NCBI RefSeq assembly: GCF_001949145.1
Contig: NW_019091356.1
Location: 4,446,934-4,510,933 of the forward strand
DNA length: 64,000 nt
Direction: 5' to 3'
Origin: Acanthaster planci
Taxonomy: Eukaryota
Below the pieces are notes generated by a model that was not told where the DNA came from, ran no database searches, and saw only the letters and a list, made by a program, of their open reading frames with translations. A program made the translations under genes and the position numbers. Below are positions 5,369-40,800 of the stretch, piece by piece (the first letter of the stretch is position 1; every line of letters starts with the position of its first letter).

Positions 5369-5956
5369 ATGGCCTGCTTTGGTTGTTGCCGACAAAGATC
5401 AAGCGACTACGTGGATGGGGAGACAGGAATAGAGATGAAGAAGGCATCATCAGAAGACAACTTGGTGGGCACCCACACCCACTACAAAATATTTGTGAAG
5501 ACTGGCGATCGCAAAGGCGCTGGTACAGATGCTAACATCTACATCATCCTACACAACGAGAGTCTTGTCGCCTCCAAAGAGATCAAGCTGGACCGGCTGT
5601 TCCATGATGATTTTGAGAGGGGGAAGACCGACGAGTTTAAGACCAAACTCCCCGTCGAGTTTGGTGCCGTGGCGAAGATTGAGCTCTGGCGGGACGAGTG
5701 CGGCGCATTCGACCCGTGGTACCTGGAGAAAATCGACATCTTTGAGACACCCAAGGAAGGGCCCAAGAAGGGGCCGTACGAGTTCCCCGTCCATCGGTGG
5801 ATTCAGGCCAATAAAAGGGTGTTTTTTCACCGGTATGACTCCCTGCTACCCCAGAATGATCCCCTGAAGGACACGCAGAGGAAGGAAGAAATGCGGGAAT
5901 TACGGCAAATCTATCAGTTCAGGAGCCAGGCCCCGGAGGCGGGAATTCCATGTCAG
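5369..5956 (+). CDS. Lipoxygenase 1 variable first coding exon A (Cys-rich N-terminus + PLAT/LH2 domain), 196 codons
   Basis: ATG at 5369. PLAT motifs [31 protein letters not shown] and FPVHRW. Ends ...GIPCQ at CAG|GTGGGT, phase 0, compatible with the phase-0 constant exon at 14151. Confidence 0.85.
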
Positions 5957-6399
5957 GTGGGTAGGCCTGCACAAAGCGGTTGAATGATGGCTATATCGGG
6001 TGTGTGCACGTAAGATTCTACTCCAGGTTAGAATTTTTTTGGATTGCATGAATCTACACTGACTGTCAGAATGCGACAAGAGCGTGCGTGCGGGTGTTTG
6101 CGTCGCGAGACGCGCTCCAACATTTGTGGTACATGTGTGGAGTCATGGCATGGTCAGGCTGATTAAATGAGATTTTTTTTTATACTCCTTTTATAAAATT
6201 CTGGTTCTTTGTGGATCTGTCAAGCATAATGCAGACATCCTTGATGCTCAAAACATCTTCGTTAACTTCAGAGTTGTGTATTATCATTAGTTGTTCTGGT
6301 AAAAATGTTAATACATATATTATAGGGCACAGTGTCTCCCAGTATCCGTAATTGAAAGGCGTTGATGCGTTATCATTATATATGCGCATTGGGCTCGTA

Positions 6400-6650
6400 A
6401 CATCTGAACATTCCTGAAACCATCTCAGCTCCTTGGGGAGTATGCTATCTTGATGCCACAATATCAGGTTCAAACGGCTAAACACAATATCCATGCCTCC
6501 GTAGGTGCCTATTTACTCACTCCTTGGTTGGAGAGAAGCACTGACGAAGGGGTAAAGTGACTTGCCCTTTAGATCGCAAAATGCTGCCACCAGCTGGATT
6601 CGAATCCCCAACCTTGTCACTCGAAGCCAGAAATGCTAACCACTACAGGT
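6400..6650 (-). mobile_element. tRNA-derived SINE (CORE-like), degenerate
   Basis: The minus strand reads GTAGTGGTTAGCA (A-box-like) ... GGGATTCGAATCC (B-box-like), followed by GGGCAAGTCACTTT, which resembles the CORE-SINE motif. The 3' boundary is approximate. Confidence 0.55.
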
Positions 6651-7401
6651 CAAATGCCGTATACACGAGACCAATGTGCCCCAATGCATCAATGATCCTC
6701 AGCATTATGTATCGCTTGTCAAGTTAGATTATCCTAGAGGTTGATGTTATTTCTTGTTTGGTTTTTTCTATCGTTTGGGTGTCATATTTGTACACCCATA
6801 GATACTCTTCGGCTAGTTTGAAATAGTATCCATGATGGAAAATGTTAAGTTGGCTGCAGATGGCTTCGTTTATTTGTTAAGCAAGAAAAATGTGACCTTT
6901 CATCAACACCCTCTCGTCATCGAGCGGCTTGTTTACATGATATACACCCCATAAAACAAACAAAGAGTTATGATATGGGTCTGGTATGTTATTAGACCGA
7001 AGAAAGAACGGACTGAAGATACTAATGCTGAATATTCAAATCAGTACTTTTCCCTCCAAATTGACTGATCAACTTCTTCGGGTTCTCTGATGGGGCGGAC
7101 GAGAACCACAAATATTCAGAAGATACGACCCCTCAGCACCTTTGAGATATGGTTGAGATTGTACCAGAATTTTACAACCGGGTTTACCGGTTGTAAACTT
7201 CCTGATAACCCCCCAGAGGACAAAAATCCACGTTTTTAACCTTCAGACTAGAACCCGGATATGCCATGTTATCATCATTTCAAACAATGAATATGTATGG
7301 CCCCTTTCGTAGTATGACAAATGGAATCTGTTGAGTGCTGTATGTGTGCGTCATATGTCTGAAAATATGGACGGGTTTTGAAGAACATGAATGCTTGGTC
7401 C

Positions 7402-7569
7402 CAGCGGCGTAGCGAAGGCATTTTCTTGGGGGGTGTGTGCCCGGGTCAATTTGCTGACTGGTCGATACAATTTCAGTTTCATTTGCCGACTGACCCTTTA
7501 TTTGCCGACTGAAAAGAATTATTGGGGGTGCGACATCCCCCTCCAACATCCCCGCTCGCTACGCCGCTG
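7402..7569. mobile_element. hAT-type MITE with 8-bp target-site duplication
   Basis: Terminal inverted repeats CAGCGGCGTAGCGA...TCGCTACGCCGCTG. CTTGGTCC is duplicated at 7394-7401 and 7570-7577. Confidence 0.85.
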
Positions 7570-8444
7570 CTTGGTCCGGATATAAAAGAATTATTGAGGG
7601 GGTGCAACACACCCCCACACCTCCCACATCCCCGCTCGCTACGCCACTGCTCGGTCCGGTTACTGTGAGTGTGACGGGTGTGCTATACAGAATGACAGAG
7701 AATAAAAGATTCATGGAAAGCTGTTCCGTCACAATGAGTGACTTAGGTCATTGTTAGAAGCCTGTTTGTTGTGCCAATACCCGGCTACATGGATGGTTAG
7801 GCATCGGTACAGCCTACAGGTGTACGTGTATATGTACTGTATGTGGTTCATTAGCCTGCATGGGAAACCCAGCTGAGAATGGCTTCACTGGCAAATTATC
7901 CAAGTCTTGGGCCAAAAGTCTACTAGCGGGGTTGGTGTGATTAGGTCAGGTCATGAAGTCAAATTCCCAACCCTGAAGCGCACTGTGAGCATACCCTTTC
8001 CATTCATGGCTTTCACTGAACCGTACAAATCCAAGATGCGTCACTGGACTACCCTATTTGCTCCAACCATAGAGCTAGGATTGTGTTCCTAGCTCTATGC
8101 TCCAACCATGCTCCAACTGCTATCTTGCGAGCATTGTGTTAAAGCGGCCTCGACCTTTCTTGCACCACCATACACGGATTGAGTTCACACGGACTCCATT
8201 GGGCCACACGTACACACAGGGAGACTGTAAATACATTGCATATGATGTACAGTGTATCCGGAAGCCACACGGGTATTAAAGATTAGCCGAATCGCACACG
8301 GAAACTTTTACTAGAATTGCAACGCACCAGTTGCGTGATAGCTGTACACCGACTTACACGTACATGTACACTGCACACCAGCAAGGTGGTCAATATTACA
8401 AACTTTGAACACCATTCTGGACTGTCTACGGCGTTTTAACCACT

Positions 8445-8951
8445 ATGGATGACGAATACAAGGCTACTAGCACCCATACGATTTACAAGATCCTCGTCAA
8501 AACCGGGGATATGAAAGGTGCTGGTACAGACGCCAACATCTACATCATCCTGCATAACAAGAAGAAGGTGGCTTCCAAGGAGATCAAGCTACACCGCAAA
8601 ATCCATAACGCCTTCGAGAGGGGCCACACCGACAAATTCAAAGCCAAGCTGCCGGCCGAGTTTGGTGCTGTTGAAAAGATCGAGCTGTGGCGGGACAAGC
8701 ATGGCGCCTTCGATGCCTGGTACCTGGAGAAGATCGACATATTTGAGAAACCCAAGGAGGGGCCCAAGAAGGGGCCGTACGAGTTCCCCGTCCATCGGTG
8801 GATTCCGGCTAGGAAGAGGGTCATGTTTCACCAGTATGATACGCTGCTCCCCCAACATGATCCTCTCAAGGAAACGCAGAGAAAGGAAGAATTAGAAGAA
8901 TTCAAGGGGACTTACACTTTCAGAAGTCAAGCCCCAGGTCTTCCATGTCAG
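8445..8951 (+). CDS. Lipoxygenase 1 variable first coding exon B (PLAT/LH2 domain, no Cys-rich extension), 169 codons
   Basis: ATG at 8445. Motifs [31 protein letters not shown] and FPVHRW. Ends ...GLPCQ at CAG|GTAAGG, phase 0. Confidence 0.85.
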
Positions 8952-10237
8952 GTAAGGCAATGTTCTGATGACGTCAACGGGAAATTTTATCATTCCTTGA
9001 ACTCTGAAAGGTCTCGGCATTCATTTTAAAAGTGCTGATAAGTGATATTTACAGATCCTTGGGAGGGAGGGTAGCGATCACGATGATTTTGAGGAATATT
9101 TATTCATATTTCTCCCCCGAACGCGTGACCGTTTGTAAAAAAGTCTTGAATGAAGGCTAACCTTTAGGTCGTGTCATGGGTACCGTACCACAGGCGTCTC
9201 TGGTTTCCGGTTCGGAGCAAGCTCTGGGTCCAATGTTATGTGTGGTTTTCGCCGACAGTCAACTCGTTGCCTACTGATAGGTCTATCAAGAGACGAATAA
9301 ATATTGCTGATTTACTGATGGTCTTCGGAAAGTACCGGCCAAACCTACGGCAATTTTCAACTTTATCCCTATAGGAAAATCTTTCCCGTGGCCCGGTACA
9401 CTTTTTTTCTAGCTTTACCGGTCTGTCTTCAATTTTAGCGCCAATCACAAACCGACAATAATCGTATCCGCTGTAACCGATACCACAAGTGAACCCACTC
9501 CAAGATACTCTCATCAGGAAAACTTTGATATCATGCGTTGTTTGTACAATTTGACTGCTGACATTTTTCCACAATCATCGGCTGTATTCTGTTCTGTGTT
9601 TGTAGACTTCATTTCCTGGTCATATTATCGTCCCGTTGACCTTCGATGTCGGAAATCCATGTACACACCGCAGAAGTTTGGCAACTACAAACAGGCTGCT
9701 TCTTTGCCCTGTGAACGTCGTATTCTCAAAATGAAAGGCAATTTCAAAAGCGGCCGTTCTAGTTTAATTAAATGAAGTAGAACTTTTGAAAATTGGTTTA
9801 CAACCAAAATGTATTGGATTGGGGACCATGTGCATTATGTGTGATGGTAGATGGACGGGGTACTGTATTATATTATGCTATTTTCTACAAACATTTTTTC
9901 AAAGTACATCGTTTTGCTCGTAAAACGCTAGGTCGTCGTGCATCGCCATCTATTTTATTTGATCATTGTAAGCATACTTGGTGTCCAGATCCACTTTGGA
10001 ACTGAACAATAAATATACTTACGGTCGTAAACAAGTACTTATATATTGGTGTTCTAAGGGGACGGGTTTTTCGAGTATCCCCTGTAAGCTTTGACTATCC
10101 TTTTATAAACGCTGGTTTAGGAGTTCGTGCTGAAGTACCCGTGGGATCCAATCGACTGTCTTTTGTTCAGAGGGATTTCGTTAGGGGAGATTCCGTTTGA
10201 ACTGTTGAGGATTCAAGAACGCAGAGGAGCCTGCAAG

Positions 10238-10723
10238 ATGTCCTGGTACCGCGTGGTTGTGAAGACGGGGGATTTGGTGGGTACTGGCACCGATGCAAAC
10301 GTCTACCTTGCCCTCTACAACACCGCTAATGTCCGATCCGAAAGCTTCAAGATGGACAACCAGTCGAAGAACGACTTTGAGCGGGGCCAGGTGGACTTGT
10401 TTGCGGTCAGGTTGAAGCGGGCGGGCTTCGGTAGCATCTCCCGGGTCGAGGTTTGGCGGGACGCGGCTGGGACTTTTGACGCGTGGCATCTGGAGAAGAT
10501 CGAGATCCACGATGCTGGAGGGCCCTAGAGAAAGGGCGGGAGGTCCCTGGCTGTCTTGCCCGTGCATCAATGGATTCTTCCCAAAAAGAAGATGCAGTTT
10601 ACCCTGTTCGATTGCTGTTTGCCACAGCGAGATCCTTTGGCCAAGACTCAGAGGAAAGAGGAACTGAAATATTCAAGGAAGAGCTACAAATTCAAGCCTC
10701 AAGCATTTGGACTTCCTTCTCAG
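10238..10723 (+). pseudogene. Lipoxygenase 1 variable exon C (divergent PLAT domain) interrupted by one in-frame TAG
   Basis: ATG at 10238: MSWYRVVVKTGDLVGTGTDAN...NDFERG...AWHLEKI...GGP*RKGGRSLAVLPVHQW...GLPSQ. ORFs 10127-10528 and 10556-10834 are in the same frame, separated only by TAG at 10526-10528. Donor CAG|GTACCC at 10723, phase 0. Confidence 0.75.
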
Positions 10724-12054
10724 GTACCCATTCTGAGTACCTTACACTATAGGTGTTACATTTACACCTGGTCCATATGTTCACTCATACGAGTTAAACT
10801 CGTAAAGCTACTTCAAAATTGTTTTATTAGCTAAAGCTTACAGTGCGACCTTCTTTCACCCCAAGTGCGGATTGACATCATCAATTTTTTTGAGGGGGGA
10901 GGGTTTTCAGAAAATTTCCTGTTCAAATATTGAAACAGAAAGAAAAAAAGAACGACCCAGGTCTAACATCCGGCCTCGAGTTCACACATCGGTCTGTATA
11001 TGTAGTCTGTTATTAGCTTATATCATCAGAAGTCATGTCCGTCACTGGATGAAGTTATAATTCCGGCAGATCTATTTCCGATACATTGTAAAAGTCACCC
11101 ATTTCACCACCTTGGGATTTCCCGACCAAATTGTCGATTTACACTTCCAAGAGCCATGTTCCCTGCCATGTTTATTTCTGTTGGCTTGCTCTTTAGCGGC
11201 CAAAGGTTATCTACTTCTGTCCTATTATTGCAGAAGAGAAAGTTGGAAATATTCCAAGCAATATAGCATTTTCACTGTGTACAGCTCTACATGGACATAG
11301 ATCTGGATTCCACGTCCCATGGTCCCATCATGTCTCAGTTGCAGTTGGATATCCAAATTTTTGTTCAATAATTCTGAACCCAAGGTGCTTGCATGACGCG
11401 AGGAAGCCAACAGAAACGTCACTGTATGGTGACAGTGCAAGTTACTTGGGGATGGGGATTTCGGTTGGACAGTCATTGATGACTGTCTCGTAAGCTCGTG
11501 TGGGATCTGCATAATCGCAAAAGAATCGAACACATTCTCAATCCCAGGGAATACTAAAATGGTTCATTCGACTGGTGTGTTCCTCTTTATTCGTTGAAGC
11601 ACAAAGTATAAATACTTTTCTAAGGTGGATATTTATCATTCGCAACACAGAAAACTTCACATCAATAGACTGAAGCTCCTCATTGTCTGTCAAACTCCAC
11701 ATCTATAAAAACACTTTTTGGCCGATCTCCCTCGGCAAATGATCAGTCCCTGCGTCACCGCATGTCCTGCTCAAAAATTTGCATATTCATATGAAGGCGA
11801 AACGCACTCTTTTTCCTGTTCACTGAGGCAAGGTAGAATCGTATTGTTGATACAAGGTCGCTGTATTAAAAAAGAGGTCAAACTGGAATTCGCACGGGCA
11901 GTGTACTCGGTGTGTGTTGGGTGTGAAGGGTCGTATTGGCCACTCTGCTTACGTGCAGACTCTTGTTTCGGGCGTTGTCATTGCCGAAGAGAACCACTCG
12001 CTGAAGTTTAGGACGGGGGCTTTGAACTTTAATTGACGACGGCAGTTCTTCATC

Positions 12055-12645
12055 ATGTCCCGTCTTCTGTGTTGTTGTGGTAATGGGTCGTCTAACGATG
12101 TCTCCGACGGTCAGGCTACTGCAATGAAAGAAGCGTCATCCGACGATAACTTGGCCGGTGCTCACACCCACTACAAGATCCTTGTGAAGACTGGCGATCG
12201 CAAAGGCGCTGGTACAGATGCTAACATCTACATCATCCTGCACAACGAGAATGGAGTCACTTCCAAGAAGATCAAGCTGGATCGGCTGTTCCACGATGAC
12301 TTCGAGAGAGGGAAAACCGATGAGTTTAAGGCCAAACTCCCAGCTGACTTCGGCGCTGTACATGAGATCGAGCTCTGGCGGGACGAACACGGTGCCTTCG
12401 ACCCGTGGTACCTGGAGAAAATCGATATCTTCGAGACGCCCAAGGATGCCCCAGAGAAGGGGCCGTACGAGTTCCCCGTCCACCGGTGGATTCCGGCCAA
12501 GAAGAGTGTCATTTTCCGTCAGTATGACTCACTGTTGCCTCAGCATGACCCACGCAAAGATTCACAACGCAAGGAGGAGATGGAGGAAATAAGGGAGATT
12601 TATCAGTTCAGGAGCCAGGCCCCTGAAGCAGGGTTACCTTCTCAG
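12055..12645 (+). CDS. Lipoxygenase 1 variable first coding exon D (Cys-rich N-terminus + PLAT/LH2), 197 codons; proximal to the constant region
   Basis: [10 protein letters not shown]... with PLAT motifs. Ends ...GLPSQ at CAG|GTGAGT, phase 0. Confidence 0.9.
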
Positions 12646-14150: not shown

Positions 14151-17100
14151 GTGGCCGAGCTGCCAAGTGACGAGAAGTTCTCCTTCGATTATTTGGTAAG
14201 TGAGGCATGCAGGGACGTTGCCTTAAATATCAGCGAGTCATAAATTGTGGATTTATATTATGTTTGTGTAACAAACTGGTTTATAATTTATGCTAATAAA
14301 CGACATGCCTACGAATACCTTGCCTGACGTGCAATATTGATTGGCTGTCCCGTCAAACAAAAACATTTTATTTTTTTTCCTATGCCCAGTTTGACCTCGT
14401 CAAGAGAAAGGCTAACCTACTCCTGCAAAGCAAACTGTCCAAGACATTTACGGGCAAGTGGCGCAACCTGGATGATCTCAAGAACGTCTACCACGGGGTG
14501 TTCCCTAAACCTGATGTAAGGCATTTCGAGACTTTTGTTGTCTTCGGTCCATAAATCTGTAGTACTTTTTCTCTAGATTTGAGAGTTCCATGTAAATGGC
14601 GACCAATGCATGTAACTCTATGTGCAGTGGATGGGCAGAAGGCGTGGTTTAAACTGAAGTTTTTTTTCTGGTTCAGAGTTACTTCATACTTTCGTATTCT
14701 ATAAACTAAGATACAAAAATGTATCAATCTAATTTCAAACATAGAGTGTTTATTCATTGAATATGTTGTGCCCTCTACTTTGGGGTGAAACCACTTCCGT
14801 GTTTTATATTTCAGGGAATGCGGATGTGGCGTTCTGACATCGAGTTCGGTCTGCAGCGACTGATCAGATGCAACCCTACCCAAATTCGACTCTTCACGGA
14901 AGTCCCAGAGAAGTACGTGAAGCTAGAACGAATTTCCTTCTGGGAAAGTTTTTTTATGGGATTAAAGTATCTGCAAGTACTATCCCATCTGAGGTTACGA
15001 ATGGCGGTTTCTTTGCTGTGAATAAGTTTGACGCTAACACTCATTGGTGTTATCTGAGGCAGTATTTCCACTGCAGTCGGTATTACTGAAGAAAACGCGT
15101 AGACTTATTTGAGGGAAATTCTTGGGTAAAACGGCAGCGTACATAACCGCCCCGAAGAGCTCTGAACGACGACAAATTAGCAAATGTAGTCTGGCTCCTT
15201 GACCTGGAAGGTGATTGTTTTGATGAATCCAAAATGCCCGAGTCAGACTTACAATTGGGCTTTTTATTTCCCGGGCCTTTGTATCCAATCGCATTTGAGT
15301 AGTGCCGCATTCTTAACTTGTCAGGTTTGGTGTGACCGATGAAATGGTTGGACCATTCTTGGAAGGCATGACAATCCAGGAGGCTATCGCGAAGAAGAAG
15401 CTGTACTACATCGACTATGAAATTCTAAAAAACCTTCCCGTTAAACAGGGAACACCGGTAAGGGCACATCAGCATTTTCTGAGAAGGTTACAGTTTCGAG
15501 CCTCCAAGACCACACACTTCCTTCTTCAAAATAATGCCCCCAATGTTTGCACTTTGTGAGTTTTTATCTCAGTTTCTTTGAGACGTGGAAGCCTGTTGAT
15601 CCCTTAACCCTAACCCTCCTCAAACCTCCAAAATCCTCTGGGTAGTTTTGAAGGATTTTGGAGGATTGAGACTGGATGCAAATTTTTAATGTAAAAAATC
15701 GGAGGATTTTGGAGGATTGGATATGGTTTCTCGTAAAAAAGAGCCCGGGCGGGTTCGGGTTAATGTGGATTTGTAATTTGCACTTGAGGTATAGATTCAT
15801 CTGGAGAGAGAACTGAAGTTTCGTCGCCCTCGTTCTGAATGTTTGTGCTGTTTTATGCCAACCGCATGTTGAGTATTACGAAGAGTGTATCATTTTAAGC
15901 CCTTTTCCCCGAAATAGAAGCATTTTGTAAATTCTGCTTTGTTTGCAGGTTGTTTCACCGATTGGACTGTTCTTTGTGGATAAGAACAAGCATCTCATGC
16001 CTGTTGCTTTGCAGTTGGAGCAACAGAAAGGACCAGATAACCCGGTAAGTCTTTTGCTATGGTTATAGTTTGCTTGGTTGATTTGAGATTGATCACAGGT
16101 AAGTTAGCTGATTGAAGATTGATCTTTGGTCAGCTGCCTGATTGAAGGCTGATCACAACTTAATTGCCAAGATTGATCGCTGCTTTGTTACCCGGTTGAA
16201 GATTGATCACAGGTTAGTTGCCTGATTTAAGATTGATCATAGTTGTCTGCCATTATTGACGATGTATCTTTGGTTAGCGGTTAGCTTGATTGATCACTAA
16301 TTAGTTACCTGATTAAAGATTTATCTTGGTTTTCTGCCTGATTGAAGAAGGATCGCTGGTAAGCTGCTTGGTTTAGATTTTTTGTCCTTGAATAGATAGC
16401 TGGATATTCCATGGTTGACCGCTCCATTGTGACCTCGATAGCTGAGTTGCCTGAGATAATATGTCAAAAGCTTTGTTTGTTAACTTATTTGCTGTCTGAG
16501 CATTTCTTATTTGTTGAAACTCTTCAGGTCTTTCTGCCCAGCGACCCGGAGTACACCTGGCTCTTGGCCAAGATGTGGTTCAACTTTGCCGACGCGTCGT
16601 ACCACCAGTCTTGCACCCATCTGGGCCTGACCCATCTGGTGATGGAATCCGTGGCGGCTACCATGCATTGCGCCCTCTCTCCTTCACATCCGCTCTTTCG
16701 GCTCCTGGCACCGCACTTCCTGTTTCTCATGGCCATCAACAGGTACACACACCTCATGGTCGACTAATTTTTGTAGTCAAGGGAAGGCGGTGAATTGTTG
16801 GCAAGGCTGTTAACAGGAGGGAATCATATGTAGTAATCGAAGCTTTTCAGAGATGAAATGAAGTAGGGAAAGATGCTAGTTACTCTTTTCTCTGTGTTTG
16901 TAGACATCAGCCAGTATTCATAGGACAATTTGATCATGTTTAAACTTTGTCTTCTGTATTTATTTCCTCGCTTTCTTCGTAAACGCAGCCGTGGTCTTGC
17001 TCTTCTGATCTCAGTCGATGGCTGGGTGGATAAGACTATGAACATCGGACGTGACGGGATGTTTGAGCTGATTGGCCGTGCCTTCAAGCGTTGGCGCCTG

Positions 17101-18889
17101 AATGTGGAAGGTACCATCATCAACGATTTGAAGGCACGCGAGGTCGATGACACCAATGCACTTCCAGACTACCACTATCGAGATGATGGAGTGCTGATTT
17201 ACGAGGCGATGGAGAAATACGTCAGAGTTGTTGTGGAATCACATTACGGTGAGGACAAACTTACGTCTCCATATTCAAAACGAGTCAATCACAGGGGCTC
17301 ATTCAGCTTGATGTTTTTACATTGGACTCCATGTATCGCAACTAATTTTAATTATATCCTGTATTTCAATGTGCGACTTGAACATCCAAGACACTTCATT
17401 TTTTGTTTTTAATAGAAACTCCTGATATGATTACTGGGGACTATGAACTCCAGGAATGGGGGCGTTTGATGGCCACGCCCCAGGATAACGGAGGAGCTGG
17501 TGTTCAGGTATTAACTCAAATATATGTAACATTTTCAATTCTAGTTACATATTTCACGAAACGGCTCTGGAAAGGGCAAGAAAGTACGGTATGTAGATTT
17601 GTGCCAGAACTTCGAAATAGACACCTCATTTCAAACCGAAATTTATTTGTATAACTAACTCACTCACCCCAGGGTATTCCGGCAGACGGCAAGTTCGCCA
17701 ACGTTGAGGATGTTATCAGCACTGTTACGCCTATCATGTTCACCTGTAGCGTGTCACACTGCGTGGCCAACTTCTCCCAGTATGACGACTACGCCTTCCC
17801 TCCTCATTATCCTGCTGGCATGAGGATGCCCCCGCCTACAGATAAGGTAAGATTTACACTAAATTCCATGTAACATTGGGTAAGATTTACCCAAACTAAC
17901 ATGAGAATCGTGTTTTTATCTGCATTCGATTTCGTTTAAATATTGTTGGTGAATGAAATCCCCTAGCTGCAGAGACAGACATACAAAGATATAAGAACGG
18001 CTGTGGTTTTGTTGTCTATTTTCTCTTACGTTTTCTCCGCCTTAAATTGCGCAACAAAATTCCTTACTGTCGCCAAACTGTAAATTATCCGACAAGGTTT
18101 GCACTGTGTACCGTTTGCCTTTGTGCTTTTGTCTTTCTTTTTCTGTTTTAATTTTTTGACTTTTACTGAGTAATTATTTGTTCTTAGTCCCCGCGTTCTG
18201 AGAAGGACATCTTAGACAACTTACCTGAGAAGAATGTGACGGTCGATGTCATGACAGTCACTCGTCTGCTCAGTGAGAAGGCCACCAATAGTTTGGGTGA
18301 CTTTGAAATGCAGTACGGATTCTGTCCTGTTGCTGTCAAGGCCCTGGAACAGTAAGAGCATTGAAAAGAGATTTTTCCCTTGTTCAAGGCTCAGCGAAAC
18401 TCACACGGAAGCCTTTCACAATACAAACAGTGAAATTTTGTAATTTGGAAATCTAATCGAAATCGTTCTCACTCGTAGATCTGATTTCATGTGTAACCAT
18501 TTCGTCGTCTTCCATACCAATATCATGCTTTTTTAATGAGAACTTCTGAACACTAAAAATGGATTCGTTTGTTTCATATTTCTAGTCTGTATGCTTTTAA
18601 CAATCTAAACATATTCTGTATGAACGGCATGTATCACTCTTGTATTACGTGGAGAGCGTTTTTACCCCATGTAGATTACACCAACACGTTCATAATATCT
18701 ACCATCTTAATTTTCAGTAGATCGTTTTATATATTAATCTTTTTAATCCACATCTTTGCCTTTTTCTCCATCAGGTTCCGGAAGGACCTAAAGCAGATTG
18801 AGGTCATCATCGATGAGCGAAACAGACATCGGGAGTTTCCTTATGATTACTGCCATCCCAAGGAGGTCCCAAACGCTATCAGTATCTAA
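14151..18889 (+). CDS. Lipoxygenase 1 constant region (catalytic domain, 11 exons, 505 aa)
   Basis: Exons 14151-14195, 14390-14515, 14815-14912, 15325-15457, 15949-16044, 16528-16742, 16989-17248, 17416-17507, 17673-17846, 18188-18351 and 18775-18889. All introns are GT-AG and the phases join into one open frame. LOX motifs: [19 protein letters not shown] (Fe ligands), SHCVANF and C-terminal PNAISI (terminal Ile ligand). Confidence 0.93.
15608..15759. mobile_element. piggyBac-like MITE in a LOX1 intron
   Basis: Flanked by TTAA at 15604-15607 and 15760-15763. Imperfect terminal inverted repeats CCCTAACCCTCC / GGCGGGTTCGGG. Absent from the equivalent LOX2 intron. Confidence 0.55.
16075..16380. 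repeat. Degenerate ~29-bp tandem repeat (TTGAAGATTGATCACAGGTTAGTTGCCTGA-like) in a LOX1 intron
   Basis: Repeated GATTGATC / TGATTGAAG cores. A related array sits in the same intron of LOX2. Confidence 0.75.
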
Positions 18890-23290: not shown

Positions 23291-26200
23291 ATGTCCCGTC
23301 TTCTGTGTTGCTGCGGCAACAAGTCGCCTAACCATGTTTCCGACGGTCAGGCTACTGCAATGAAAGAAGCGTCATCCGACGACTTGGCCGGTGCTCACAC
23401 CCACTACAAGATCCTTGTGAAGACTGGCGATCGCAAAGGCGCTGGTACAGATGCTAACATCTACATCATCCTGCACAACGAGAATGGAGTCACTTCCAAG
23501 AAGATCAAGCTGGATCGGCTGTTCCACGATGACTTCGAGAGAGGGAAAACCGATGAGTTTAAGGCCAAACTCCCAGCTGACTTCGGCGCTGTACATGAGA
23601 TCGAGCTCTGGCGGGACGAACACGGTGCCTTCGACCCGTGGTACCTGGAGAAAATCGATATCTTCGAGACGCCCAAGGAGGGGCCTAAGAAGGGGCCGTA
23701 CGAGTTCCCCGTCCACCGGTGGATTCCGGCCAAGAAGAGGGTCATGTTCCGTCAGTATGACTCACTCTTGCCTCAGCATGACCCACGCAAAGATTCACAA
23801 CGCAAGGAGGAGATGGAGGAAATAAAGAAGATTTATGAGTTGAAGAGCCAAGCTCCTGAGGCAGGCATACCTCTCCAGGTCAGTACCTCAAGAATTCAAA
23901 GCTGTGTACGGTGAACAACAGTTATTTCCCTCTTAACAGTAAGTTAACAGTAAGTCAGTTGACTCGAAAAAACCTTGTCTTTAGGAGTTAGGCAAATTCA
24001 GTTCAAAGTATTGACTTTATTAATTCTGTCATCTTAGGAATTTGGGATCAAATCTCTTGTACAAATGTAAACTTTTATTATTAAGCTGGATCTTTCTTAC
24101 AAAGATTGGGGTCTACTTGTTGGTAAATCAGAATATATCATCCAAAATTAAGTTAGAAGGTAACAAAGTTGATGTAGTATAATAATCATGCTACCGGATG
24201 TGAGAAACCTTGATATTATAGGTCATGATATTCCAATGTCTTCTTTAGAGCCTGGTATTTATTTATGTATTTGAAAATCTTTAGACAGGACATCAGCTCT
24301 AAGGCTGTTTTACATCATAGTCCTGTGTAGTACAGAGACAATGGACAATTAAGAGGGTAAAATGGTAACATTAAAATTAACTAACAAGGGCATAAAAACT
24401 GTTTTTAAAAATACCTAATTAAAAATAAAGCTTCTTATACATAATTTTAAACCGTCCAAAGAGGATGCATTTTGGACTTTAGCTGGTATGTTGTTCCATA
24501 TAATAGCTTCAGAATAGTTGAGAGATTGCTTAACACATTCCATGTTGGGCCTAGGGACCACAACATTAAGGGAATCAGCGTTTTCTAGTGTTAAATCTAT
24601 GGTATAGTGATTTAGATTAGATGCAATCAACATCCCGCCCAATTAGTAAAGGAAATTTCCGAAAGAGGTCCTGTTGTACAACGAATTAAGCTAATTCCAC
24701 GCTATACGTTGCGAAAAATCCTTCTGGAAACGGTGCCATTGAAGTTTGGTAGATTTTGAACACAAAAATTTGACCTACTTGAAATTTTAGTCCACACGCT
24801 ACGGCACACGTCACAACGCCCACTGATCTGTGGGTGACAAAGTCAAGATCAGAATCAACAAGAAATAGGCTTATTCGAATTGACGAAATTTGGTGGTGAC
24901 GCGTCAAGATGCATCTGCATTAGAAGACGGTCCTCTTTTCTTTAGTAAGTTGTTATCAATTGAACTCAATGAGGTATACAGTGATTCCGGCCTCGGAATC
25001 TAGCTGCGTAATTTGCGTGATCAGTTTTCTTTAAGCTAGGTATCCAGTGGCGTATATTTACGTCGAACTTTGTTGTGAGTCATAGAAAGATAGAGAATTC
25101 AGCTTCCCTTACCTGGAAGGCTTTCTACGACTATTCTGGTCAAAGAGAACTGCTTGTTTATCATCACTTAAAGTCAAAGTTTTTCGGCGGTGAGGTTACT
25201 GATATTTGATATTTTCACTGCGATGATGAGTGCGACTGAAAGGCACATAGGCTACTGCGAAATAGAGAAACCATTTTGGACTGTTGAATTACACGCATCG
25301 TTTATGAAGATATTGCAACGTGTGAGAAATCCACGTTTATTCCCCGGCCTCGGTGTCTTTATGGGTTCTTGCTACCTGCTGTATGTTTAACAACCGTCCT
25401 TTGTTATTTTTGAAAGGGTATGGGTTTGCTTTGTATTTTTCACCAATGGCATATCTGGCCTTGATGTCTTTACTGAGCATCAAGGCCAACTTGTTTATCA
25501 TAGCACTTCGCACTGAAATATTCAGTCAGGAAAAAGAGCTGTTAAAAGTCCTTATACGCGTTTAAGTGTATAACCTTTGAACTTGCACCAACATGGATAC
25601 CCTCTGGTAGGCTACCGGCCAGACCAGAAATGCCTGGATCTCTAGTTGTGCAGTTTTGATGACAAGAGGAAATGTTTGGTGTGGTTTATAGGTTTAAAAC
25701 ATGTTGTGTGCATACTTAATTGGTACACGTTGTGGGAAGTTCCGTTTTGCTTAGTTAAGGAGTCGTTGTACAGGTTGATGTACAAATGTAAAAGCATTTC
25801 CATCCTACGACAATATGGATTTATTTTTGGTTCTTATCAAATTCAGACTACGCTGCTTTACTTTTTCAGAAACCGAAAATTATTTCATTTGTACTTCCTG
25901 TAGAATTCGTAGGTTTTATACTGAATTGTGGCTTTGCCTTTCTCTCCTGTCGGTATAGGCCTCTGCATTTTGGCATTGTTACGTTTATCCGCGCACTTTC
26001 ATTTCAGAATGGAACCGCAACTGTTCTTCAAGTTGACACATTTATTATATATACATGTATACATCTTTCAAGTTTGTGAAAAGGCAATCGGGAACTTGGG
26101 TTCTTTATTTCAAATACTGTAAATATTTTGCTTATACTTTTGACGCCAGGTGGCCGAGCTGCCAGGTGACGAGAAGTTCTCCTTTGAGTATTTGGTAAGA

Positions 26201-29200
26201 CAGGAAAGTTACTCGGAATAGGCCTATCAAATTATTTATGAATTACAGATCCTTTATGTATTTATAGCTTAACAAATGATACGACTGCCCGTGAATGCCT
26301 TCCATCATGTTCAGACTTAACGTTTGGTTTCGTGTATTAAAGCAAGAACTTTCTCTCTAATTTGTTGTTTCTCCTGTGTCCAGTATGACCTCGTTAAGAG
26401 AAAGGCTAACCTACTCCTGCAGAGCAAACTGTCCAAGACATTTACGGGCAAGTGGCGCAACCTGGATGATCTCAAGAACGTCTACCATGGAGTTTTCTCC
26501 AAACCTGATGTAAGATAAGACTCAGTTTTCCGTGGAGGAGCCTTTAGCCAACAGAGGGTCAAATAATGAGGCACATGTCTGTTGCAAATTAGACATTCGT
26601 TTCTTATTTCTTAAACCCGTCAACCTGTGTCTCTTGATCTGAGCAACGTGCGTGCTGCATTAACAAGCTTTTCGCCATCATCAAACTTGAATGTAGATAT
26701 ATGTTAGGGTGAAAAAATAAAGGACTTTACTAATATAAATTCTAAAGAGTGTCACGTGTTGAGTTTTTTGTGCTCTCTCAGCGTGGAGCTAATTGTTTCG
26801 TAAATTTCAGGGAATGCGGACGTGGCGCTCTGACATTGAGTTCGGTCTGCAGCGACTGATCAGATGCAACCCTACCCAGATTCGACTCTTCACGGAAGTC
26901 CCAGAGAAGTATGTACAGCTAGAGCAAATTTTCTTCTGGGAAACATTCAGAAATCTAATTCCTTTGCATCTTTTCACGAAGACTTATGAATCCATGAAGA
27001 GCTCATACAATCTACCACAGGCGTCTGGAAGTTTAATCTGTCAAATGAGAATTCTATGCCTAGGGCAATTGCATCCTTAATTGTACTCTAAAATGATGGG
27101 TATATCTGACATCCAATTGGACACTTGTTGCGGACAGGGCAATTCATATGAAATCGCATTCTAAAATTCCTTTATGTAAGTCAAATGATAGAGCTTTATA
27201 TCCAGTCAGGATAAAGTTCCCCGACTTTTGTCACTTGTCAGGTTTGGTGTGACCGATGAGATGGTTGGACCATTCTTGGAAGGCATGACAATCCAGGAGG
27301 CTATCGCGAAGAAGAAGCTGTACTACATCGACTATGAAATTCTACAAAACCTTCCCGTTAAACAGGGAACACCGGTAAGGACACATCAGCATTTTCTGAG
27401 AAGGTTACAGTTTCGAGCCTCCAAGACCACACACTTCCTTCTTCAAAATAGTGACCTCCAATGTTTCCATTGCATAGGTTTCTTTAATTTATGAAAGGGA
27501 AGGCCTTTTGCTCCTCCAATATGGATGTGTATGGAGATTCTATCCATTCTTTTCCTCCGCTGTGAATCCAGTCAAGGTTCATCCGGATATTGAAAATGGG
27601 TTTGTACTGGCTTTTATTTGTAAATTCTTTTGTCAGGTTGTTTCACCGATTGGACTGTTCTTTGTGGATAAGGACAAGCATCTTATCCCTGTTGCTTTGC
27701 AGTTGGAGCAACAGAAAGGACCAGATAACCCGGTAAGTCTTTGGCCATGGTTGGTTGCTGGTTGTGGCTGACTGATTTGATGGTTTGCTCAGTTGCTAAG
27801 TTGATTAAAGATTCCTTGCTAGTTATCTTATTGGAGATTGATCACTGGTTGGCTTCCCTAACTGAATATTTAGCTGTCTGAATGAAGATTGGTTACTGGT
27901 TGGCTGCTATTGAAGATTGATCGCTGGTTAGCAGCCGGATTGAAGATTGATCACTTGTTAAATGATAAATAAATTTCTTTGCTCATTTTGTAAAAAAGAG
28001 ATCACTGCTCAAGTGCATGGTCGGCTAGCTTATAAAGATTGACCGCTCTAGTGTGACCCCGGTTGTTGAGCAGCCTGTAATAATCTGTTGAAAGCTCTGT
28101 TTGTCTGTTAGTCTGTTAACTAATTGGTTATCTGTGCATTTCTTGTTTGTTGGAACTATCTTCAGGTCTTTCTGCCCAGCGACCCGGAGTACACTTGGCT
28201 CCTGGCCAAGATGTGGTTCAACTCTGCCGACGCGTCCTACCACCAGTCCTGCACCCATCTGGGCTTGACCCATTTGGCGATGGAGTGCGTGGCAGTTACA
28301 ATGCATCGCACTCTCTCTCCTTCACATCCGCTCTTTCGGCTCTTGGCGCCGCACTTCCTGTTTCTCATGGCCATCAACAGGTAGGCTACATACACCTAAC
28401 TCTCGTACTGAAACGAATTGTTTATTGAAACAGGTGAGGGCGCTGTATTAATGGCACATGTATAAACAGAAGTAGATTATCATGAAATTTTATTTTAGAA
28501 AGAGGAAACTGATACATCAGTTTACATCCTACAAGGTGCCTAATTTAATCACCTGTTTCCTCGGTGGATATACAGTATAGACTATGTTACCCATGGCCAA
28601 ACTATGATTGTATTCAAAATCCTCATAAACGCAGCCGTGGTCTTGCTCTTCTGATGTCTGTCGACGGATGGGTGGATAAAACGATGAACATCGGACGAGA
28701 TGGCATGTATGAACTGATTGGCCGCGCCTTCAAGCGTTGGCGCCTGAATGTGGAAGGTACCATCATCAACGATTTGAAGGCACGCGGGGTCGATGACACC
28801 CAAGCACTTCCCAACTATCACTATCGAGATGATGGAGTGCTGATTTACGAGGCGATGGAGAAATACGTCAGAGTTGTTGTCGAATCACATTACGGTGAGG
28901 ACAAGTTCAAGTCTTCATGTTTGAAATGATTTGGCTCATTCAGCTTGATAAGCATTTTGTCACCAGACTATAGTATCGCTACGAATTTTAATCACACCCA
29001 GTATTTCAACGTACGACCTGAACATACCAGACACTTACTAAACTTGTTTGTACTTTATAGAAACTCCTGACATGATTACTGAGGACTATGAACTCCAAGA
29101 ATGGGGGCGTTTGATGGCCACGTCACAGGATGATGGAGGAGCTGGGTTTCAGGTATTTAGTCAAATAGTATTTTAAATGCAGATGAGTATCTCACTGCTC

Positions 29201-30384
29201 TGCTCTGTAAAATGAGCAAATGTATGCAGATCTGATCAGGACTTCTGAATGGATCCCCAAAAGCGAACCGAAATTTGTTCAACTGGAGTAAAGAATGCGA
29301 ACTAACTAATTTACCCCAGGGTATTCCGGCTGACGGCAATTTCGCGAACGTCGAGGATGTCATCAGTACCGTTGCGCCCATCATGTTCACCTGCAGCGTG
29401 TCTCACTGCGTGGCCAACTTCTCTATGTACGATGACTACGCCTTCCCTCCCCACTGCCCGACAGGGATGAGGATGCCCCCACCCACCGATAAGGTTTGAT
29501 TTGTGACCTGCTCATTTAGTTCTTACGTCAGAGCAACATTAATGACTCGCGCCAAACCGTATGAAATTTGCATTGAAACTCGTATGCTTGTTTTTGTTTA
29601 TTTTTTTGTTTTGTTTGATTCTTTATAAGTTATCATTTACCTTTCTTACATGAAGTCTCCACGGACTGAGAAAGACATCTTAGACAACCTGCACGATAAG
29701 ACATTGACGGTTGATGTCATGATAGTCACTCGTCTGCTCAGTGAGAAGGCCACCAATAGTTTGGGTGACTTTGAAATGCAGTACGGATTCTGTCCTGTCG
29801 CTGTCAAGGCCCTGGAACAGTAAGACAATTAAAAAGAGAGATGTTTCCCCTTTTCCAAGGTTCTTCAAAACTCTTTCATCACAGATTTACGGAAACAGGA
29901 CGTAACAGTTCAAATTTTGTCACATGCTGATCTTATTAATATTGTCCTCATTGCATAGCTTTTTGATATTTGACCATTTTGTTGTCTTACGTGCCGTTTC
30001 TGTGCTTTTTCTAGTATGACCTTTCCTGGTGGAAATTGAATAAGTTTACAGTCAATTGATTAATGTCAAATTAATTAATTTAATTTAAAAGTCAAATTAT
30101 TGATTTTGTTTTTGAACGGCAGAAATAATTACTACACTGCCACTGTACATCATTTTGTATCCAATGGCTTACTCGAACATATTCATAACATACATCATCT
30201 TAACTTTCAGTATATCGGTATTATAGAAATAATCTTTTTAATCCACATCTTTGCTTTTTTCTCCATCAGGTTTCGGAAGGACCTAAAGCAGATTGAGATC
30301 ATCATCGATGAGCGAAACAAAAATCGGGAGTTTCCTTATGATTACTGTCATCCTAAGGAAATCCCAAATGCTATCAGTATCTAA
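23291..30384 (+). CDS. Lipoxygenase 2 (PLAT + catalytic domain, 12 coding exons, 701 aa)
   Basis: Exons 23291-23878, 26150-26194, 26384-26509, 26811-26908, 27242-27374, 27637-27732, 28166-28380, 28635-28894, 29061-29152, 29320-29493, 29656-29819 and 30270-30384. Constant-exon sizes and phases are identical to LOX1. HLGLTHL, HCVANF and PNAISI are intact. Confidence 0.93.
24400..24620 (-). mobile_element. 3' fragment of a non-LTR retrotransposon (CR1/L2-type ORF2 C-terminus) in LOX2 intron 1
   Basis: Translation [42 protein letters not shown] resembles the conserved 'P+P..E..K.SFSY.G..LWN.LP..++...SL..FK..L' ORF2 end. Confidence 0.6.
27765..27960. repeat. Degenerate tandem repeat homologous to the 16075-16380 array
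   Basis: Repeated TGAAGATTGATCACTGGTT-like units in the equivalent intron of LOX2. Confidence 0.6.
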
Positions 30385-32275: not shown

Positions 32276-32939
32276 NNNNNNNNNNNNNNNNNNNNNNNNN
32301 NNNNNNNNNNNNNNNNNNNNNNNNNNNNNNNNNNNNNNNNNNNNNNNNNNNNNNNNNNNNNNNNNNNNNNNNNNNNNNNNNNNNNNNNNNNNNNNNNNNN
32401 NNNNNNNNNNNNNNNNNNNNNNNNNNNNNNNNNNNNNNNNNNNNNNNNNNNNNNNNNNNNNNNNNNNNNNNNNNNNNNNNNNNNNNNNNNNNNNNNNNNN
32501 NNNNNNNNNNNNNNNNNNNNNNNNNNNNNNNNNNNNNNNNNNNNNNNNNNNNNNNNNNNNNNNNNNNNNNNNNNNNNNNNNNNNNNNNNNNNNNNNNNNN
32601 NNNNNNNNNNNNNNNNNNNNNNNNNNNNNNNNNNNNNNNNNNNNNNNNNNNNNNNNNNNNNNNNNNNNNNNNNNNNNNNNNNNNNNNNNNNNNNNNNNNN
32701 NNNNNNNNNNNNNNNNNNNNNNNNNNNNNNNNNNNNNNNNNNNNNNNNNNNNNNNNNNNNNNNNNNNNNNNNNNNNNNNNNNNNNNNNNNNNNNNNNNNN
32801 NNNNNNNNNNNNNNNNNNNNNNNNNNNNNNNNNNNNNNNNNNNNNNNNNNNNNNNNNNNNNNNNNNNNNNNNNNNNNNNNNNNNNNNNNNNNNNNNNNNN
32901 NNNNNNNNNNNNNNNNNNNNNNNNNNNNNNNNNNNNNNN
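32276..32939. other. Assembly gap covering the alpha-tubulin C-terminus
   Basis: Run of N bases that interrupts the tubulin ORF after ...IATIKTK. Confidence 0.99.
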
Positions 32940-34817
<1,878 letters not shown>

Positions 34818-37890: not shown

Positions 37891-40800
37891 TTACGTTTGC
37901 AATAAAACGGGCGTGTCAATGACGACGCCATCAGAAGCAGACGCGTTCATTTGGTCCTCGGATGTTCTATTGTTCCCTGTGGGCGTGGTCTCAACATTTA
38001 ACTTCTCCTTTACAGCTGCCGTCACCGTTGGTTCCACTTTAATGCAGTGCGTAACATGTTTAGTGGGGACATCATCACATTTCACAAATGGTGTAGCGGG
38101 TTGTTTGTCCGTTCTTTCATCTGGCGAGGAGCATGCTGCATTTGGAAAAACTCCTGGTTTATCGTTCTCTACAGGTGCTGACGTCTTACTCTCGCCAGAG
38201 GAATCTTTCAACGGTGAGGGCGACAAAGTGGCACTGGACAGGGTATAGCTGATTGGTGGAGCGTCGCGCTTTTGAGATGTCTCTTCAGGCTTGTCAGGCT
38301 TGGACACAATATCGGGCCTCGTGGTGGCCGGGTCAGTGTTTGGCATCGCCATAGTTAGTTTGGGTAATGAATCTGGCTTTGATGACGCCACACTTGAAAC
38401 TGACGATGCACCTTCCCCCTTTGGTAAGGCCATGACTGAATTTGATGAAATCATGTCCAACTTTGGTGAAGCCACTTCTGCTTTAGAAGAGGGAGATTGA
38501 CCTTTAACTGACGTAACAGGAACTTGAGGTGACGTCACGTTGGCCGTTGATGGCGTCTTACCAGGCTCTGTTGGTGACGATACGGGCTTTGGTGAAGGTT
38601 TAGTAGGATTTAAAGAACTCGAATCAGTCTTTAACGAGTTGGCAGTGGCAGGTGGAAAGTAGTTCACTGTTTTGGGTACAACCAACGAGGTGTTGGTTAG
38701 AGTCTTTACTGACGTCAACACAGGATTCGCTGACGATACAATGACAATAGTCTTACTCTGTGTGTTTGTAGAAGACCCCTGAGTGGGGATGCTTATTGCG
38801 GAAGACATTTTTGGTTTCTCAGGTTTACCAGACAGTGACTTTTTCTGAGGGCCGGCATTACCGTCCTGTGAGTGGGTCTGTCTGGACTGTCCGGGCGTTT
38901 CTGATGAAGGTGCTTTGGTCGGCTTGGCTGGACCTTTGACGGATTCTCCAGGAGGTTTTCCTTTACCTTGTGGCTTCTCAAATTGTGCCTCCTTGGTTTG
39001 AAGAGAGGGAGGGCTAGGTGATTTGGTCATGTTCCCTTGGCGTTGAGCTGCAGGGGATGAAGGCTTCTGACTGGCGCTCCTGGATGGAACAGAATCGGAG
39101 GATGAAACACTGGACTGACTTCCTTTTCGTCGTTTGGAGAAAGGTTCAAAGACTCTGAACAACAGAGGCAGAGGTCCATTCTGTAGAGAGAAGGGTGAGA
39201 AATAAGCATTTGATTATCTTAAGAACATTAAGAATCTTTAGATATTCACCTGCTCCTAGACCAATAAATGATTATTTTATTGAACTATGTTTGTTTCTAT
39301 GAAGCCTTACCCGTCTCCAAGTGTAGATGTAGGCGATGTCCATCAAGGTGTAGTCATCACGCAAAGGCTCATCTTCACCATTCTGGTGAACTACTTCGAT
39401 CTGAAATGACAAATCAGAGCAATTCTAGACATAAATGGAAAACAAGACGACTTCTTTAATTGAAAAAAAAATCAGTTGTGACTCACACGACTGATTTGGG
39501 CTGAATTTTTACGTTGTCGTCATGTCTTAGTACGATATACTTCACGCTATGCACCTTGCCTTCCTGATTCGTTTCCCTGATTTGTTTTTATTCATTAATG
39601 TTTTTTTGGGGTACCCTGTGAGCTGGAGAGAGTCCAAATTTATTCCTGATGAATTTCTTGATGTGAGAGACGCAAACGGCAGCGGGACAACGTAGGTATC
39701 TCTTCTCCACCACCTGAAATTGGGAATAGTTAGTGGGCAATTGTTATTACATTGTTGTACAAGTTAAATCAGTACAACCGACAACACTGAAGTACCAGAA
39801 TTAAAGACCAAATATTCAAACCACTGCTCAAGCTAAAACAGGGGTCACTATCACTGAAGGTGTGGTTGGTGTTGGATGGTTGGTTGTGGACAGTCATCTC
39901 TGCCCTACACAGATGATTGCAATTAGGCAATGCCTGCTGTATTACACTCACGTCTCCACCCAGCCCGTTTGCATCTCCGTTGGAACGTTTGCCGTTGGCG
40001 TTGGTGTCTCCTTCATCCCTTATCTTCTGGCCCTCATCCTTCTTTGGCTGCGCAAAGTAGTAGTCCAGGGATAGACTGATATACTCATCCTCGGTATAGA
40101 TAACCAGAGAATCCTCGCACACCTCCCCTCGTTCCTCTCTTGCGTTCGGCGACTGCATGCTGGTACCTGAGGGAAAGGGGGGGGGTTGCCAGAAATACGT
40201 CCAAAAGATGAACTCAATTTAAGCAAGGAATAACCATTTTTGAAGAGATATAGATGATCTTTAGGCTATTCAGCAAGAGAAACGTCTCTGTAAGGAAACA
40301 ACCCATTATGACAAACAATGTCATCTATTTGAAGCCCATCGACACAATTTTCGGCAAAATGGGATTCAAAACTAGTCAAAAGATCTCCCACCCCTCAATA
40401 CACCTTGTCGTAAGCAGACCATATTATTCTTCCGATACAATCCAGGATTTCTAGGCAGAGGCAGACTTCATTATCTTTAATTTAGACAGCAGCAAAAGGC
40501 CCGCCGGGAGAAGGCAACTGCAAAGGATTGTACTGCGAATCTCCAGGACAATTTTAGGGAAAAACACAACAGGAAAAAGGCAGGTGTTTCCTCAAGGCAT
40601 CCAAAATTGACAAAATAAAACGTACTAATGGACAATATAAGGGAAACTGACGGAGCAGACGCCCACAGAAAGATCGGACGACAAATATGTTGTGTCAGTT
40701 TCGCACTTACTTGCTTGAGGGTGCTTGGCGTAAAAATCTCTTCTCCGTTTCATTTCATCTAAAATGAGTAAATCACAGAGTAACTGAAAATGAATACTTT

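Follow-up and report, generated by a model that had tools for sequence, protein, structure and literature searches.

The starfish Acanthaster planci has a lipoxygenase gene, here called LOX1, whose first exon exists in four tandem paralogous versions, A, B, C and D (cassettes), and A, B and D are spliced to one shared catalytic core. The gene lies in the window analysed here, a stretch of 64,000 nucleotides (contig NW_019091356.1, positions 4,446,934 to 4,510,933 of the forward strand; all positions below are those of the window). We consider it probable that each first exon adds a whole PLAT domain and an N-terminal tag to the shared core and that exon choice sets the route to the membrane, A and D being S-acylated and equipped with a calcium loop and B having neither. 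The cassette system is expressed, conserved and broader than described in an initial annotation of this sequence, in which the cassettes were distinguished by an N-terminal Cys cluster. That difference was confirmed, but the cassettes were found to differ over all of the PLAT domain as well, its calcium/membrane loop included.

Alternative first exons and the shared catalytic core

Two tandem lipoxygenase (LOX) genes, LOX1 and LOX2, both on the plus strand, are present in the window. In LOX1 the four first exons are followed by 11 constant exons in one reading frame, and every first exon, including that of LOX2, closes with a phase-0 CAG/GT donor. Each also encodes a Pfam PLAT domain, which begins at residue 39 in A, 14 in B, 4 in C, 40 in D and 39 in LOX2. 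Window-wide exon modelling placed no catalytic exon in the stretches between cassettes, and no sixth cassette was found in the window by tblastn.

The coding part of cassette A (5369..5956, plus strand, ATG at 5369, N-terminus MACFGCCRQR) comprises a Cys tail (C3, C6 and C7, at 5375-5389), an acidic linker, the PLAT domain and the first catalytic-domain helix. Cassette D (12055..12645, plus strand, ATG at 12055) likewise has a Cys tail (C6-C8, at 12070-12078), an acidic linker and a PLAT domain with the acidic loop intact. Cassette B (8445..8951, plus strand, ATG at 8445, N-terminus MDDEYKATSTHTIY) has no Cys tail, and in its PLAT domain His50 (8592-8594) and Ala56 (8610-8612) replace conserved Asp residues. 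These N-termini, together with MSWYRVVV of cassette C and the identity of D with LOX2 over ten residues, agree with the initial annotation; the linker, put there at about 25 aa, needs correction: about 30 aa separate the Cys cluster and the PLAT domain. Joined to the constant exons, cassettes D, A and B give proteins identical to RefSeq isoforms X1 (P0063), X2 (P0006) and X3 (P0064) of the A. planci 'arachidonate 5-lipoxygenase-like' gene. The proteins are already present in automated annotation, all labelled with one generic name.

The LOX1 constant region (14151..18889, plus strand; exons 14151-14195, 14390-14515, 14815-14912, 15325-15457, 15949-16044, 16528-16742, 16989-17248, 17416-17507, 17673-17846, 18188-18351 and 18775-18889) encodes a catalytic domain of 505 aa with the iron-ligand His motifs and a C-terminal Ile. 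Both PF01477 and PF00305 scored above the Pfam cut-off in starfish LOX. The iron ligands (His pair, His/Asn motif and C-terminal Ile) are present in LOX1, LOX2 and the proteins of the starfish Patiria and Asterias, and align to those of 11R- and 8R-LOX. A structure model of the cassette D form, built from an 84-row alignment with a mean predicted local distance difference test score (pLDDT) of 90.6, matched the folds of 5-LOX and 8R-LOX (E about 1e-52, TM-score about 0.84). The active-site residues are encoded by the constant exons. Gly437 (exon 16989-17248) is aligned to a Gly of coral 8R-LOX, at a position that we take to be the determinant of R or S specificity, which suggests that LOX1 may be an R-specific enzyme.

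LOX2 has a single first exon of D type (23291..23878, plus strand, ATG at 23291, Cys codons 23306-23314; RefSeq P0059) with 92% aa identity to D and the same first ten residues, and 11 constant exons (26150..30384, plus strand). It is a tandem duplicate of cassette D plus the catalytic exons, and its last 420 aa are 92% identical to those of LOX1. RefSeq LOX2 isoform P0003 (686 aa) skips the 45-base exon 26150-26194 and loses 15 residues in the region linking the PLAT and catalytic domains.

Cassette use in RNA

The exon choice proposed in the initial annotation was examined in three raw RNA runs, which carry the Acanthaster species label and come from other individuals, with tissues not given; 18-20% of each was read (18-24% over all the runs used). 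Each of the three cassettes A, B and D was seen joined to exon 2, which starts at 14151, with 9/3/3, 5/1/34 and 6/69/63 junction reads for A/B/D in the three runs, and read joints represented all ten introns of the LOX1 constant region. The proportions of the cassettes differed strongly between the runs (chi-square p 5e-15). No joint from C, from one cassette to another or from further upstream was present among the 15 joints listed, out of 16 for the three runs. Read depth extended without a break 5' of each cassette ATG, with clusters of read starts at 8173 and 11960. Because the upstream reads are contiguous and no upstream or cassette-to-cassette joint was listed, we infer that each cassette probably has its own promoter.

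The A of the window at position 14166 is replaced by G in every RNA read listed, which changes Ser to Gly, the residue of LOX2. Either the alleles differ, or reads from the cassettes are indistinguishable at this site from those of LOX2 exon 2. The repeats listed include intronic ones that attract reads from elsewhere, at 6397-6447, 6580-6610 and 14585-14630.

Exon choice thus held for A, B and D and failed for C. Cassette C (10238..10723, plus strand, ATG at 10238) is a bare, divergent PLAT exon that shares 44-46% identity with the other cassettes and has an intact donor and an in-frame TAG at 10526-10528. Read depth across it equalled that of the flanking introns in the three runs, and two further RNA runs contained no C joint or loose end and just 6 and 2 reads on C. 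Since it combines an in-frame stop, no listed junction and intron-level depth, C does not function as a cassette in the genome analysed; it is recently broken or polymorphic, and silent in five raw RNA runs. The stop is kept in DNA run X12, and a sense codon stands there in DNA run X9, which has another organism label. One contig of X9, the run with the open C, has a C>G change at 10242 (codon 2, 10241-10243) that gives Cys at position 2 of C. A protein search with cassette C matched a single multi-PLAT protein and no C-type lipoxygenase, which is weak evidence.

The Cys tail of cassettes A and D

The earlier observation that A and D kept the Cys cluster despite their divergence was extended to other starfish. 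The CC pair is kept in 5/5 diverged long cassettes with varying flanking residues, and the number and spacing of the Cys differ (C3/C6/C7, C6-C8 and C3/C7/C8). With the family background Cys frequency, the chance of at least 2 Cys in 9 residues is about 0.009 and that of at least 3 is 0.0003. Three isoforms of Patiria miniata match the A. planci forms, two bearing a Cys tail and one bare, and one Cys-tailed model was found in Asterias. Position 2 is occupied by Ala or Ser, and not by Gly, in A, D and LOX2 and in the proteins of Patiria and Asterias.

A start at a downstream Met, which the initial annotation had raised as a finding that would exclude the tail from the protein, was examined, and the first ATG looks translated. 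Between D and LOX2 codons 1-10 differ by 4 silent and 0 replacement changes, and codons 11-15 contain 3 replacements. Similarity of the two begins 4 bases 5' of the first ATG; in the untranslated region from -60 to -5 only 12/56 bases match, which is the chance level. The base at -3 of the first ATG is A in cassettes A and D and in LOX2, cassette A also has G at +4, and RNA reads cover this ATG. Given the conserved CC pair, the silent-only changes, the onset of similarity and the A at -3, the Cys tail is most likely translated and under selection. Codons 33-130 of D and LOX2 (window 12151-12444) are identical in DNA, with both exon ends diverged, and gene conversion or a very recent duplication is the likely cause.

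In the structure model, tail residues 1-34 have pLDDT under 50, and the conserved Cys near the start thus lie in a tail predicted to be exposed and disordered. The first 30 aa of D include 2 basic and 4 acidic residues. The inner Met precedes the acidic linker and stands near the position at which B starts, and B may have descended from this inner start.

The PLAT loop and cassette B

The acidic loop of two coral enzymes, 8R- and 11R-LOX, has its counterpart in the alignment in the loop Asp76...Asp81-Asp82-Phe-Glu84 of A and D. The calcium ligands of 5-LOX are Asn43, Asp44 and Glu46 (PMC5113960). The crystallised Stable-5-LOX has Gly-Ser directly before Phe-Glu-Arg-Gly at this loop. Allowing for a three-residue shortening of that construct, Asp82 presumably corresponds to Asp44 of 5-LOX. 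Asp is found at this position in 82/89 aligned PLAT rows and Ala only in B and in Patiria X3, both of which also have His for Asp76, and Ile or Leu for the loop Phe. The net charge of the PLAT domain is +8 in B and +5 in Patiria X3, as against -2 in A and -4 in D. A and D thus retain the putative acidic-loop ligands equivalent to Asn43, Asp44 and Glu46, and B lacks the Asp44 equivalent and keeps the Glu. The absence of a tail and the changes of Asp76 and Asp82 occur together in both B and Patiria X3.

For B these residues predict weak binding to membranes in response to calcium, and A and D would combine a tether with a calcium loop. The description of B as Ca2+-recruited in the initial annotation is accordingly doubtful, as B is without two loop Asp that A and D keep. 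'Constitutively membrane-anchored', proposed for A and D, was too strong a term: S-acylation without a Gly2 myristate is reversible.

N-terminal tags in the lipoxygenase family

The starfish tails were compared with the N-termini of 164 homologous proteins, 121 of them complete-looking; these are related sequences and the numbers below are not independent counts. A Met-Gly start, the pattern of a myristoylation signal with or without palmitoylation, was found in 78/121 proteins, 47 of which have Ser/Thr at position 6, while 37 have a Cys among residues 1-10, in most cases at position 4 or 5. Cys without Gly2 was seen in 10 homologues, 8 of which are the starfish proteins described here. Judged by these N-termini, lipid anchoring looks like the family norm, and the starfish tail looks like a palmitoyl-only replacement of the family-wide lipid tag. 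Five Branchiostoma database models (P0049, P0052, P0056, P0057 and P0058) have the PLAT-lipoxygenase fused to PF00067 (P450) or PF01582 (TIR).

The initial annotation regarded the Cys cluster as a typical acylation site. This has a precedent in LIMK1, which is palmitoylated at Cys7/Cys8 and in which residues 1-15 are enough for targeting (PMC4429338), and agrees with the family-wide acylation signals; acylation of the starfish proteins is itself a prediction. In human ALOX15B palmitoylation at Cys106 controls the membrane location (PMC12463027).

PLAT exchange in other animals

Isoform sets were searched for among database models by grouping proteins with identical C-termini. In molluscs and a barnacle, sets were found in which about 507-513 residues are common and the whole PLAT region differs: Mizuhopecten (5 members), Argopecten (4), Pecten (4), Ylistrum (3), three Mytilus species (2-3), Dreissena (3), two Haliotis species (2 each), Potamilus (3) and the barnacle Amphibalanus (2). 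The junction of these swaps aligns with the starfish junction. Scallop forms begin with Met-Gly-Asn-Cys, carry an extension of 53-55 residues with 6-8 Arg/Lys and zero Asp/Glu, or are bare; the extension is, by its composition only, like a mitochondrial presequence. In abalone and Potamilus a Met-Gly-x-Cys or Met-Gly-Cys-Cys form is paired with bare forms, and in Dreissena all three forms are bare. No PLAT swap was found in 7/10 clusters of one batch (Patella, Physella, amphioxus, corals, urchin and two sea cucumbers), nor in the horseshoe crab, Nematostella or second scallop clusters. Models P0010 (Tegillarca), P0080 (Argopecten) and P0195 (Mytilus) are over-long; in P0010 a PLAT region preceded by a basic presequence is followed by a second PLAT region, and this model probably represents cassettes fused by the gene caller.

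In a tree of PLAT domains B was grouped with Patiria X3 (support 100/97) and D/LOX2 with Patiria X2 (99/94); A was nearest to Patiria X1, the pair not being resolved. All starfish cassettes formed one clade (100/98) apart from the mollusc cassettes, and the catalytic domains divided likewise. A common origin of the starfish and bivalve bare cassettes was rejected by the approximately unbiased test (p 1.5e-5; 17 versus 19 rows, the group having been named after the tree was seen). The starfish and 25 bivalve cassette rows as one clade were also rejected (p 6e-6), in a test that is unfair in that other mollusc rows nest inside, and testing did not reject a sister position of the starfish PLATs to the full set of 40 mollusc rows (p 0.33). 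The simplest reading of these trees is that duplications took place separately in starfish and molluscs; an old cassette array with turnover may also account for them.

For a wider proposal we see the chances as about even: that invertebrate LOX genes (starfish, molluscs, barnacle) have repeatedly made the exon preceding one conserved intron into an array of address cassettes, by which one core would be sent to membranes (with myristoyl/palmitoyl or palmitoyl-only tags), to mitochondria (with a presequence) or left in a soluble and calcium-blind state. Promoter choice would then route oxylipins, and the default targeting of this large LOX clade would be lipid anchoring and not recruitment by calcium alone.

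A model for the cassettes and competing explanations

In the model that we favour, promoter choice would select the first exon, and the chosen exon would supply the PLAT domain and the tag. A zDHHC enzyme would acylate the Cys pair on the disordered tail of A or D and so create a reversible tether near the fatty acid released by phospholipase, making these two forms both reversibly S-acylated and calcium-responsive. Their Cys-only tag would have taken the place of the myristoyl/palmitoyl tag, Met-Gly(-Cys), found across the wider family. The untagged B would be soluble or bind acidic lipid through its basic PLAT domain, with weakened calcium control. The catalytic core being unchanged, product chemistry should be common to A, B and D because the active site is constant.

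Several observations weigh against this model. The assignment of Asp82 to Asp44 of 5-LOX leans on the presumed three-residue deletion in the crystallised construct, and B keeps the equivalents of D48, D55, E84, D110 and D116, with which some calcium binding may remain. The differences in cassette use rest on part of the reads of runs from other individuals and unstated tissues. The A and D tags are nearly alike, and the tag alone does not account for the existence of both. Only four changes fall in codons 1-10, and the D/LOX2 comparison is complicated by probable gene conversion, codons 33-130 being identical. The inner Met (5435, 12124 and 23360) is kept in 5/5 long cassettes (in A and D a purine stands at -3), and three short upstream open reading frames (ORFs) precede A, so that by leaky scanning untagged forms may arise from A and D too. 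The same conserved inner Met and upstream ORFs, and one unnamed NCBI model (P0067) that begins beside the inner Met, are what could be expected if A and D were translated mostly from there and the Cys tail were seldom made. We regard this as very improbable in view of the context of the first ATG, with A at -3 and in A also G at +4, the reads covering it, and the D/LOX2 similarity that sets in 4 bases before it and continues through codons 1-10 with silent changes only.

There is a small but real chance that the cassettes serve mainly as several promoters for tissue or stage control, as in UGT1, the differences in tail and loop being by-products. Cassette use does differ strongly between runs, A and D have similar tags and loops, and expression is known to be made tissue-specific by variable first exons that have individual promoters (PMC1885805). 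Such control has, however, no need for a duplicated exon of 160-200 codons, B shares both its tail loss and its two Asp changes with Patiria X3, and mollusc sets repeatedly combine a Met-Gly-Cys form with bare or presequence forms. Control by promoters is in any case compatible with the address model and does not exclude it. It seems to us improbable that the Cys cluster is not acylated and serves instead in metal binding, in disulfide formation or in redox sensing of the hydroperoxides that the enzyme itself makes. Lipoxygenases do produce hydroperoxides, and D is without Gly2 or a long basic patch for the first contact with the membrane, but the number and spacing of the Cys vary, unlike in a metal site, the cluster sits where the family has its Met-Gly-Cys tag, and hydrophobic residues precede the Cys pair, as acylation would predict. 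A little less probable still is a swap that tunes catalysis (substrate choice, allostery or stability) with location secondary. The exon carries, besides the whole PLAT domain, the first catalytic-domain helix (168-182), and in other LOXs removal or mutation of PLAT changes rates and substrate specificity (PMC7436259); against this, the active-site residues are in the constant exons and the sharpest differences between A/D and B are in the tail and an exposed loop.

Other features of the window

A short duplication at 7512-7662 is absent from one contig, and a tandem array lies at 1859-2141. On the minus strand a tubulin gene (32940-34102; Pfam Tubulin and Tubulin_C, alpha-type by eye) enters the N gap at 32276-32939. 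A further minus-strand gene, with exons in 37891-40218, has a long tail rich in Ser/Pro/Lys and no Pfam match; one of its exons is reminiscent of BMI1/PCGF proteins.

Relation to known systems and significance

The LOX1 array resembles UGT1, GCNT2 and the clustered protocadherins (PMC1885805) in its tandem paralogous first exons of similar length and frame, shared downstream exons, a broken member and lineage-specific duplication. It is set apart from UGT1-type clusters as an invertebrate array with three working members in the lipoxygenase family, and while the variable exon of UGT1 encodes the substrate-recognition domain, that of LOX1 encodes a membrane-targeting domain and tag and leaves the active site constant. 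In PSD-95, SAP97 alpha/beta and GRIP1a/b alternative N-termini also add or omit a Cys near the start, which is thought to alter location (PMC6365469); theirs are short or unrelated modules with proven acylation, whereas LOX1 swaps a whole duplicated PLAT domain and its acylation is predicted. LIMK1 similarly has adjacent Cys near the start of an enzyme (positions 7-8), but it is a vertebrate kinase and no exon switch is described in the accessible part of the source (PMC4429338). Coral 8R- and 11R-LOX, human 5-LOX and ALOX15B share the fold and iron ligands with LOX1 and the acidic PLAT loop with A and D. Unlike LOX1, the solved animal LOXs have one PLAT domain and aligned chains without a Cys tail, and the ALOX15B site is internal and not isoform-switched (PMC12463027).

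Searches of open-access literature brought up no account of PLAT cassettes in LOX genes or of acylated N-termini in invertebrate LOXs; subscription papers and supplements were outside their scope, and supplements of invertebrate genome papers could mention them. The accessible parts of PMC11270918, PMC2763107, PMC7693274, PMC4806843, PMC8740744, PMC10889196 and PMC9682198 did not deal with cassettes in LOX genes, with N-terminal acylation, with ligands at the level of residues or with 8R-hydroxyeicosatetraenoic acid (8R-HETE) in starfish.

The position of a lipoxygenase decides which lipid pool is oxidised, and the textbook route to that position is calcium-driven PLAT binding. The family comparison suggests that N-terminal acylation is common among invertebrate LOXs, which is unmentioned in the literature searched. 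With a fixed active site and a swapped PLAT domain and tag, the LOX1 isoforms are natural matched controls for the effect of targeting on oxylipin output. Starfish eggs make 8R-HETE that triggers their maturation, an observation not found in the literature searched. If LOX1 is the R-specific enzyme in question, its isoforms would be a direct handle on that observation in egg maturation.

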